Assembly (NCBI GenBank): GCA_951406725.2
Contig: OX597826.1
Coordinates: 75,082,001-75,146,000 of the forward strand
DNA from: Octopus vulgaris
Lineage: Eukaryota
Direction: 5' to 3'
DNA length: 64,000 bases
Part shown: positions 48,786 to 50,573 of the stretch, one piece after another
Position numbering within the stretch: the first letter of the stretch is position 1
How the letters are laid out: the number at the start of each line of letters is the position of its first letter
The notes under the pieces: model-generated
The model's database searches: none
Seen by the model: only the letters and a program-made list of their open reading frames with translations
What the model was told of the DNA's origin: nothing
Program-made: the position numbers and the translations under genes

Positions 48786-49768
48786 TACATATATATATAT
48801 ATATATCATCACTAAGGTAGTGGGTGGCGATTTTCTTCACTACTTCAGGGAGTGACAACCCTGCCTGACACAAATCCTAGGCTCAGCTGGCTCCGGCTGA
48901 CAGTACCTGGTTTGGGCCCCCATCCAGGGTTACGGAAAGGAGACAACCTTTAAGGAAATCTGGAGTGGAGCCCCGTAGTTGGTTTAGTGTTCAATTTGAC
49001 ACTCTTCCAGCAGCTCCTGCAACCAAGCTGGTGCCAAACGTAATGCTCTGCACTCCTTTGGACTACATCAGCAAGGTCGAGAGAGGATTCCTGACGATTG
49101 GGCTACCCAGGATTTTCTTACGTCTAGCCCAGGCCTGCGCAAAAACTTTTATGCGTAACTCCATTGTCTCCCGAGACAAAAGGATGCCAACAATGTATCA
49201 TCATCATAATCATTTAACATCCGTTGTCCATGCTGGCATGGGTTGGACAGTTTGACCAGGCTGGCACGCTGGAAGGCTGCACCAGGCTGGCACGCTGGAA
49301 GGCTGCACCAGGCTCCAGTCTGATTTGGCATAGTTTTCTACAACTGGATGCCCTTCCTAATGCCAACCACTCCTAGAGTGTAATAGTAGCTTTTACGTGC
49401 CACTGACACGTGTGCCATTTGCGTGATACCAGTATCTGCCACAACTGTGATTTTGTTCGGCTTGATGGGCCTTCTTCTCAAGCACGACATAATGTCAAAG
49501 GTCTTGGTCATTGCCTCTGTGAGGCCCAACACTCAAATATATATATACATATAGGTTATAAGAGATAATGGTGTCATTGAGACCCAAAGGTGTCAGGTAA
49601 TGCTGAATAAGTGCTATAGATGGACCATAGTTAAGTTCCAGGTTTGGTGATTATGCGAATAAGGGGTTCAATGTTGGTCATATGTCAGCGTGTGTATATA
49701 AATTTTTTTTTGCGTAATGAGATAAAAAACCAAGGCTGTATAGATTTTAGAACATTTATAGATAGAAG

Positions 49769-49816
49769 GTCTTACAGATGTTTCCAGGATATTTATTATA
49801 TCCCTTCATCAGAGAC
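49769..49816 (-). ncRNA. Type I hammerhead ribozyme (minus-strand copy)
   Basis: Minus strand: GTCT CTGATGA AGGGATAT AATAA ATATCCTG GAAA CATCTG TA AGAC. Confidence 0.75.
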
Positions 49817-49931
49817 GGTGTGAGAGGATAGTAATATCCTTACATATCTCACATCTATTTTCTTTCCTCTACCTCACTCTCTATTTTGTATCACATCTAA
49901 ACTAACTATGACTTAACCATCCTCTCACACC

Positions 49932-49983
49932 GTCTCTGATGAAGGGATATAATTAATAAATATCCTAGAAACAGCTGTAAGAC
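49932..49983 (+). ncRNA. Type I minimal hammerhead ribozyme (plus-strand copy)
   Basis: Stem I GTCT/AGAC; CTGATGA 49936-42; stem II GGGATAT/ATATCCT; GAAA 49968-71; palindromic stem III ACAGCTGT; GUA cleavage after 49979. Confidence 0.8.
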
Positions 49984-50573
49984 CTTCTATTTATAAATGT
50001 CCTAAAATCTACTCAGCCTTGGTTTTTTATATATTCTATATCTGAATAAAAGTCAAGATAATCACAGCTGAAATACCTTTGATCGTAGACCTACTGGATC
50101 AGGGCTGACCTAGTGTTAAAAACAGCAATAACAACAGCTGGTCATGTTAGCTTGTTAGTTTGTCAGGTGTCTCCACCCATTTATAAGACCTTTGGCCTCT
50201 CTGTGTCCAACAAATAAGTAACAAATACAATTCTAGGATGAGGTGTACTTTGGCTGGATGACAGTGGTGGTGGTGCTGCTGCTGCTGCTGCTGCTGTAGA
50301 AACTGGCATTTGATACAAAAGTTTTTCATTTGAGGAATAGACAAAGATACTAAAAATAAAATACTATAATAGACAGTGAATATATATATATAGATATATA
50401 TATATATATAACTTCCCGAAACAGTAAGGACATCTGGTAACTTGACTGAAGAAAGAAGGCTACGAATGATCTGCCCTTTTTTTCCCTGTCTTTCAAAATG
50501 TTGTTTCTCCTGTCCATCTTTGTACCGTCTATTTGTCTGAATATTTTATTGTCCTCTGTTGCATTTTTGTTCC

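Follow-up and report, generated by a model that had tools for sequence, protein, structure and literature searches.

The stretch of DNA analysed here (the window) comprises 64,000 nucleotides of the Octopus vulgaris genome (positions 75,082,001 to 75,146,000 of contig OX597826.1), which spans 2.8 Gb and is rich in microsatellites. The focal locus, from 49554 to about 50040 of the window, is an insertion of about 490 bp that is flanked on both sides by TA-rich sequence and has no ORF of its own. We refer to the Penelope-like element (PLE) family to which the insertion belongs as the focal family, and we count family coordinates (-/+) from G12 of the hammerhead ribozyme (HHR) in its pseudo-LTR (pLTR). 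The locus contains the following parts:

49538..49553, no strand: target repeat of the (TA)n type at the long end, called from the sequence and from the running of focal-family ends into (TA)n
49554..49695, minus strand: 'tail' of about 160 nt past the short end, equivalent to the leader just upstream of the ORF start in a tandem element; matches family +88 to +238, inner boundary approximate
49696..49832, minus strand: long-end arm, a 5'-truncated pLTR copy covering family -58 to +87
49769..49816, minus strand: minimal type I HHR with a 5-nt loop 2, A-G at 10.1/11.1 and U4; predicted cut after 49773
49832..49833, no strand: head-to-head inversion junction, microhomology of 0-2 nt as read by eye
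49833..49915, plus strand: 'spacer', which is upstream pLTR sequence present in the plus arm only; 93-95% identity to single copies (query 119-316)
49833..50030, plus strand: short-end arm, a 5'-truncated pLTR copy covering family -130 to +62
49932..49983, plus strand: minimal type I HHR with a 9-nt loop 2, A-A at 10.1/11.1, U4 and an intact 8-nt palindrome; predicted cut after 49979
50031..50041, plus strand: probably what is left of the usual short end (+87) following a deletion of about 15 nt, merging into the TA-rich flank; inferred by eye

The inverted arms that a first-pass annotation had placed at 49722-49829 and 49919-50030 are indeed reverse complements of 108 and 112 bp, with six mismatches and one 4-nt indel. 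Local alignment lengthens them to 49716-49832 and 49916-50035, and the fold energy of the fold-back is -158.6 kcal/mol, compared with -47.1 ± 4.7 kcal/mol for 60 mononucleotide shuffles. The reading of the structure as an inverted partial pLTR also held, but its extent had been underestimated, as the minus arm continues to 49554. Similarly, the pyrimidine-rich spacer of about 90 nt is 69% pyrimidine, yet it is no separate segment: it consists of plus-arm pLTR sequence, and the two arms abut with their 5' ends at 49832/49833, with no TA repeat between them.

Each arm carries an outward-pointing minimal type I HHR (4-bp stem I, 7-bp stem II, GUA site), in agreement with the initial description. 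In the plus-strand ribozyme, stem I pairs 49932-49935 with 49980-49983, the core from C3 to A9 occupies 49936-49942, and the 7 bp of stem II (49944-49950 with 49960-49966) end in a G-U closing pair next to A49943, which faces A49967; G12 lies at 49968 and the palindrome at 49971-49978, with cleavage predicted after 49979. The minus-strand ribozyme has C3 at 49812, G12 at 49784 and its predicted cleavage site after 49773. The features of a minimal type I HHR (stems I and II, GAAA, NUH and a palindromic stem III) are all present in the plus arm, whereas the minus-arm palindrome is broken at 49778 by a private change, a position at which 97% of the contig depth in sequencing run X16 has the other letter. 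Accordingly, the dimer helix predicted for stem III drops from -11.1 kcal/mol for the intact palindrome to -1.1 kcal/mol for the minus arm with itself, and to -4.4 kcal/mol for the minus arm with the plus arm. The suggested check against the Rfam hammerhead models returned no HHR, with 0 matches in the window at the gathering score and five at E<=10, none of them to an HHR family, so the HHR call rests on inspection of motifs and stems. An Rfam match to MIR821, far under its gathering score, was set aside because it reflects the hairpin only. Elsewhere in the window, nine looser CUGANGA...GAAA matches occur (3871, 26188, 27658, 45444, 58644 and 59274 on the plus strand; 60785, 27134 and 618 on the minus strand), none of which is among the top hammerhead-descriptor matches.

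The repeat unit is present in high copy number, with 4,935 first-look candidates, and a 23-mer beside the ribozyme has 1,568 exact matches in the genome (0 for the reversed control). The focal family is a decayed one with at least 1,568 HHR-bearing arms. Walking upstream from copies of the arm revealed the adjoining RT/GIY-YIG ORF that the first-pass annotation had proposed to look for: in three long copies (L065, L066 and L117) the same pLTR lies downstream of a reverse transcriptase (RT) and an endonuclease, which bears out the assignment of these minimal HHRs to a PLE pLTR. L065 reads, in order, inverted tail, RT with GLYRDD, cysteine linker, GIY-YIG, about 1 kb of 3' sequence and the focal pLTR, and in L118 nothing separates the tail from the ORF start. 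The focal family shows what is expected of EN+ PLEs, namely RT followed by a C-terminal GIY-YIG in one element (L065, L117), an HHR in the pLTR, a tail that passes without a break into the beginning of the following unit, and 5' truncation with an inverted 5' copy and a one-sided tail (30 of 88 loci, see below). Pfam matched GIY-YIG (PF01541) in two of five open stretches, the best at E 9e-4 and under the curated cut-off, and recognised no RT or EN family in four long ORFs. The RT call is based on motifs, on ESM Atlas neighbours and on the 46% identity of the focal-family RT piece to an intact sister ORF; some members of the ESM Atlas neighbours of that ORF carry HTH_animal, GIY-YIG and RVT_1. 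One of the best named homologues is an Argonauta protein. When longer proteins were searched with the endonuclease piece, 0 of 20 candidates matched, which is weak evidence, and no intact focal-family copy occurred among 150 scored RT matches. A 333-aa open frame abutting the 5' break of one focal-family copy (L031:3112-4110, plus strand) resembles, we assume, a DDE transposase of the IS1595/Merlin kind.

Several motifs point to the Hydra clade. DKT replaces DKG in L118 (alignment A1); the CxCx5C linker together with CxxC and CxH flanking E and N is complete in L069 and L067, with one linker cysteine changed in L074; and copy ends run into (TA)n, as judged by inspection of the ends. Since section 11 of Craig et al. 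2021 (PMC8557442) gives DKT, CxCx5C, CxxC..E..N..CxH and a (TA)n target as diagnostic of this clade, we place the focal family in it by motifs and target. The Hydra-clade EN+ PLEs described there share these motifs with the focal family, and also the C-terminal GIY-YIG, the (TA)n target and an HHR near the 3' end. The N-terminal motif is RRK in the one broken copy aligned (L118) and of the RWK/RWR type in sister families. Neptune and Nematis, for which a CX2-5CxxC linker and CCHH would be expected, were rejected on account of the CxCx5C linker. The focal family is about 3.5 kb long with a 3' region of about 1 kb, and its tail of about 160 nt contrasts with the 30-40 bp quoted in the same source; Hydra-1_Obim, as presented there, is a different family with an HHR sequence unlike that of the focal family.

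The sampled loci also contain a young sister family of the Hydra type (L124, L125, L131; L197-L226), with open frames of about 980 aa, 1,038 exact matches, a hammerhead of the canonical U4 form whose stem II is long, sharp ends at +52 and +173, and most listed matches in divergent pairs; it would be a good substrate for testing the insertion mechanism. Asparagine-rich inserts lie between RT and endonuclease in L068:5883-6527 and in the L124 ORF, and similar inserts are described for Adineta Penelope elements (PMC3846280).

The first-pass annotation had called the ribozyme core intact. Both focal arms do have U4, but the term is misleading, given that the family core is C3-C4-G5 (CCGAUGA), with C4 in 83 of 98 sampled arms, and that the minus palindrome is broken. 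The consensus, C3 U4 G5 A6 N7 G8 A9 with paired 10.1-11.1, is thus departed from twice by the focal family, through C4 and through an A·R mismatch, which the focal arms retain despite their U4. At positions 4/5, 68 of the 98 arms have CG, 14 have CA, 13 have TG and three have another dinucleotide, and a neighbouring CpG shows a like spread (69, 9 and 10). A 34-mer specific to one subfamily of the focal family occurs genome-wide 57 times with TG and 290 times with CG or CA, with CA in 15 of the first 100. These counts suggest that U4 at the focal locus is most simply explained as CpG decay, either there or in the source copy. A looser 22-mer gave 370 U4 against 1,433 C4 matches with 13 CpA in the first 100, an approximately twofold excess of U4 over CpA; since this 22-mer also picks up a U4-bearing sister family (seen in L010), the excess is probably due to that family, although some U4 sources may exist. 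At 49937 itself, C makes up 85-89% of the contig depth in four sequencing runs. For ribozyme scans the case is a caution, as CpG decay can make a textbook CUGAUGA from a variant C4 core. In a viroid, U4C lowered activity considerably but left it sufficient, according to the part of PMC3088659 that deals with it.

The caution in the initial description about A-A and A-G at positions 10.1/11.1 was correct, and the mismatch is family-wide: a purine precedes G12 in 97 of 98 arms, and the next pair is mostly G-U or G-C. Other HHRs in the sampled loci also have 1x1 mismatches there, as do published Hydra HHRs in the supplement of PMC8557442. Loop 2 varies in length (9 nt in 90 arms, 5 nt in 34, 12 nt in six, others in six and unread in 15) while the stems are kept; commonly polymorphic columns number one of 43 within the HHR and 11 of 74 outside it (p=0.054); and stem III palindromes differ among other families. 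Together these patterns are signs of possible selection on the source elements. Inserted copies show no significantly better conservation of the core than of the flanks (10/465 or 2.2% against 113/3661 or 3.1% differences, p=0.31). The absence of preferential conservation, which had been named in advance as speaking against a genuine ribozyme, therefore applies to the core and not to the stems and palindrome, which are kept across subfamilies and families. At least eight further minimal-HHR types with different palindromic stems III were seen in L043, L134, L136, L008, L065, L068, L117 and L126, some with U-U, C-A or A-C at 10.1/11.1, and both L043 motifs also have C4.

The frequency of mirror pairs was assessed in the first 92 of the 1,568 23-mer matches along contig C1, which gave 88 loci after merging of four close pairs; the sample requires the exact 23-mer in one arm and is blind to the upstream core. 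An adjacent head-to-head inverted arm was present at 30 of these loci, and at 10 both arms span the HHR, which, scaled to all 1,568 matches at 10 per 92, gives roughly 170 loci with two HHR-spanning arms. A view of the focal pair as unusual is not supported, as it is one of many independently formed inversions, with a layout that had already been published. Measured from G12, copies have one of two discrete 3' ends, a short one at +87 (classed as 60-95) or a long one at about +226 to +246 (classed as >=205), and at each of them a TTATA motif passes into (TA)n. All 27 classifiable pairs combined one short with one long end (0.5^27 = 7e-9), with no short+short and no long+long pair and three of the 30 unclassified, while single-arm loci comprised 44 short-only and 12 long-only cases. 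The same rule was followed by 12 of 13 selected fold-backs and by nine of nine pairs of the younger sister family, with ends at +52 and +173. In the latter family (1,038 matches), the first 100 matches listed include, by hand count, 36 divergent pairs no more than 6 kb apart. The rule is a countable one (36 of 36 classifiable pairs in two families) that bears on how PLEs make inverted copies, and we found no publication that proposes or counts it, in a literature search that covered few subscription papers. The focal locus itself, one decayed copy among hundreds of similar pairs, matters little.

We consider it very probable that a Hydra-clade PLE, inserted in 5'-truncated form with two head-to-head copies of its hammerhead-bearing end, gave the fold-back, which would be a by-product of insertion rather than a built-in RNA switch. 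For the route of its formation we favour, with distinctly less assurance, two-ended priming. Both strands of a (TA)n target would be nicked, and the cut strands would prime reverse transcription at two TTATA-containing RNA sites about 160 nt apart; early termination would yield 5'-truncated cDNAs, and the two cDNAs would be joined head to head in one event. The occurrence of one short and one long arm in every classifiable pair favours such priming on both target strands from two RNA starts. In vitro work on the anole PLE Poseidon PAc (Frangieh et al. 2024, PMC11167929) describes, in the parts of the paper used here, cutting and extension of both strands at AT-rich targets, with RT starting at two internal sites that bound the tail, like the two ends of the focal family. 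This result and the pair counts together make two-ended priming the simplest route, even though Poseidon PAc belongs to another clade, its start sites lie inside the ORF, whereas the putative ones of the focal family lie ahead of it, and inverted copies are not addressed in those parts.

A variant of the same by-product in which the inversion arose by snap-back or self-priming, whether an antisense template was used or the cDNA folded back on itself, seems unlikely to us. The Discussion of PMC3846280 so reads the junction palindromes of Adineta Penelope elements, which like the focal family have head-to-head inverted pLTRs with a tail on one of them, and proposes self-priming on an antisense template, whereas our counts favour two primings. 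Many overlapping pairs do have close 5' ends (-64/-60 in L092, -205/-197 in L173) and share rare variants, as self-priming would predict. In the 20 overlapping pairs tested (11 from the C1 sample, nine selected), paired arms shared 20 rare variants where 5.1 were expected, and they shared subfamily markers, with 13.8% differences compared with 43.9% (0 of 5,000 permutations); young-family pairs, such as L199/L200, share haplotypes on inspection. This sharing also counts in favour of two-ended priming in one event, and the shared rare variants could alternatively stem from gene conversion between arms. However, the arms do not overlap in seven of the 27 pairs, and in 21 of 27 the 5' end of the short arm lies beyond that of the long arm (in 17 of them by over 10 nt), which excludes simple cDNA copy-back for those pairs. 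The focal arms, moreover, reach -130 and -58 and differ at common alleles. For two-ended priming, in turn, the 20 of 27 pairs that overlap need strand displacement or a second template, and the 44 short-only and 12 long-only loci, which show no second arm, also speak against it. Pile-ups of 5' ends, for example at -73, are apparent and may be alignment artefacts.

Few pairs are less concordant than the focal one: four of 11 common-allele sites and the length of loop 2 (5 against 9 nt) distinguish its arms, and the closer relatives of each arm lie elsewhere, with the partner arm ranking 40 of 152 and 86 of 148. Given this discordance, one RNA copy was probably not the template for both arms, and the explanation probably requires two events, two RNAs or a tandem source with two pLTRs. 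Two separate insertions of different subfamily copies into one TA repeat would account for arms with different circulating haplotypes, and the focal family does target (TA)n and occasionally has neighbouring extra copies (L009, L142). We nevertheless judge this improbable, as no TA repeat separates the abutting 5' ends, the short+long pairing is that of all other pairs, and U4 is common to both arms although it occurs in only 13 of 98 sampled arms. On the broader proposal that Hydra-clade PLEs integrate by two-ended priming, through a dimeric RT-endonuclease that always uses one of two fixed RNA starts for each strand of a TA target, we are evenly divided. The mirror HHR pair would then be the normal footprint of insertion, and discordant arms such as the focal ones would reflect a dimer with two different RNA templates. 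The C4, A·R hammerhead, which the family carries in its thousands of copies, would be either a variant rescued by protein or a demonstration that the element can do without cleavage.

The first-pass annotation had further suggested that the fold-back makes the ribozymes self-inhibited or serves as a source of double-stranded RNA. Folding predictions agree with the physical part of this claim: stems I and II form with probabilities of 0.8-1.0 in each arm alone, whereas within the fold-back the HHR helix probabilities are 0.0 and forcing the HHR costs 60-67 kcal/mol, so that the hairpin is predicted to outcompete the ribozyme. A purposeful function is not supported, as the pair is one of many inversions and the hairpin geometry follows from the insertion route; as a self-inhibited switch, the hairpin physically holds in prediction only. 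Retention of the copy by the host as such a switch, or as a double-stranded RNA source, is in our view very improbable. The predicted loss of both HHR folds on either strand would suit it, as would the canonical U4 of both arms and the fact that any transcript through the site would be double-stranded over about 108 bp. Against it stand the roughly 170 family loci with two HHR-spanning arms, the broken minus palindrome (-1.1 instead of -11.1 kcal/mol), the fit of U4 to CpG decay, and a focal arm divergence of 0.104 that is not under the 0.017-0.121 of other pairs (19 of 20 pairs compared). Furthermore, of 252 candidate open stretches in the window, the 140 that were scanned contained no recognisable exon; Pfam gave three weak matches under the cut-off there, none near the focal element, which may nevertheless lie in an intron. 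No contig listed for three presumed RNA runs bridges 49832/49833, but none listed for a presumed DNA run does either, which speaks neither for nor against transcription; in all runs the contigs are swamped by other copies. A fossil of ADAR-type A-to-G editing was discarded, as only one of 10 arm substitutions is an A/G site and that one is a common family allele. The HHR is a motif of the element itself and is predicted to depend on a partner (a dimer via the palindrome) or on the element's protein. At the focal locus it is probably carried along in decay, and in any read-through RNA the hairpin would hide it.

A MITE-like or fold-back element amplifying as a unit, with the arms as terminal inverted repeats, can practically be dismissed: TA is present at both ends and most of the 326-bp query aligns with 12 other loci at 82-86%, but junctions and arm lengths vary among those loci, an RT/GIY-YIG element has these arms as its 3' end and one of them has a 160-nt extension. 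Junctions differ among the 13 fold-backs most like the focal one (L001-L013), from which we conclude that no fold-back master was amplified. Beside one focal-family fold-back lies a sister-family fold-back with U4 and a G-C closing pair (L010:2015-2456).

Opposite-strand HHR pairs and inverted 5' copies are already published for PLEs, Hydra included. In the supplement of PMC8557442, Penelope-13_HM has a 5'-truncated inverted copy (File S1) and HHRs on both strands (File S2), and in many of the Hydra HHRs given in File S2, stem II is flanked on both sides by an unpaired base, usually U/U; C4 and A·R of the focal family are absent from the File S2 rows compared, which are part of that supplement. 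Inverted 5' copies with a tail at one end are described for PLEs in sections of both PMC8557442 and PMC3846280. The minimal HHRs of PMC4209133 resemble the focal ones in their 4-bp helix I, 7-bp helix II, extra base after A9 and palindromic helix III, and are of low activity, as dimers only; they differ in a conserved G10.1-C11.1, where the focal family has an A·R mismatch over a G-U or G-C closing pair and a C4 family core. The same study reports dual minimal HHRs on opposite strands, about 100-700 bp apart, in Schistosoma. The Poseidon PAc HHR, as reported in the relevant part of PMC11167929, cleaves only with protein and is dispensable for insertion. Finally, the non-LTR retrozymes outlined in bioRxiv 10.64898/2026.07.22.740005 are, like the focal insertion, ORF-less and PLE-related with a type I HHR, but form head-to-tail tandem arrays, whereas the focal locus contains a head-to-head pair with variable truncation; as it contains no array, we rejected a classification as a non-LTR retrozyme.

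Three minor features of the window were also recorded. An open stretch at 14357-14995 (plus strand) gave a weak DUF6451 match (E 4e-5, under the cut-off) and is presumably a LINE fragment, and positions 32655-33203 hold a 13-bp tandem array of about 40 units. On the plus strand at 49901-49944, a branch-point-like ACTAAC follows a pyrimidine-rich stretch, with the next AG just past A9; a splice at this AG, if used, would take out the 5' half of the plus-strand HHR, and the Penelope element of D. virilis has an intron ending at helix I (PMC4209133).
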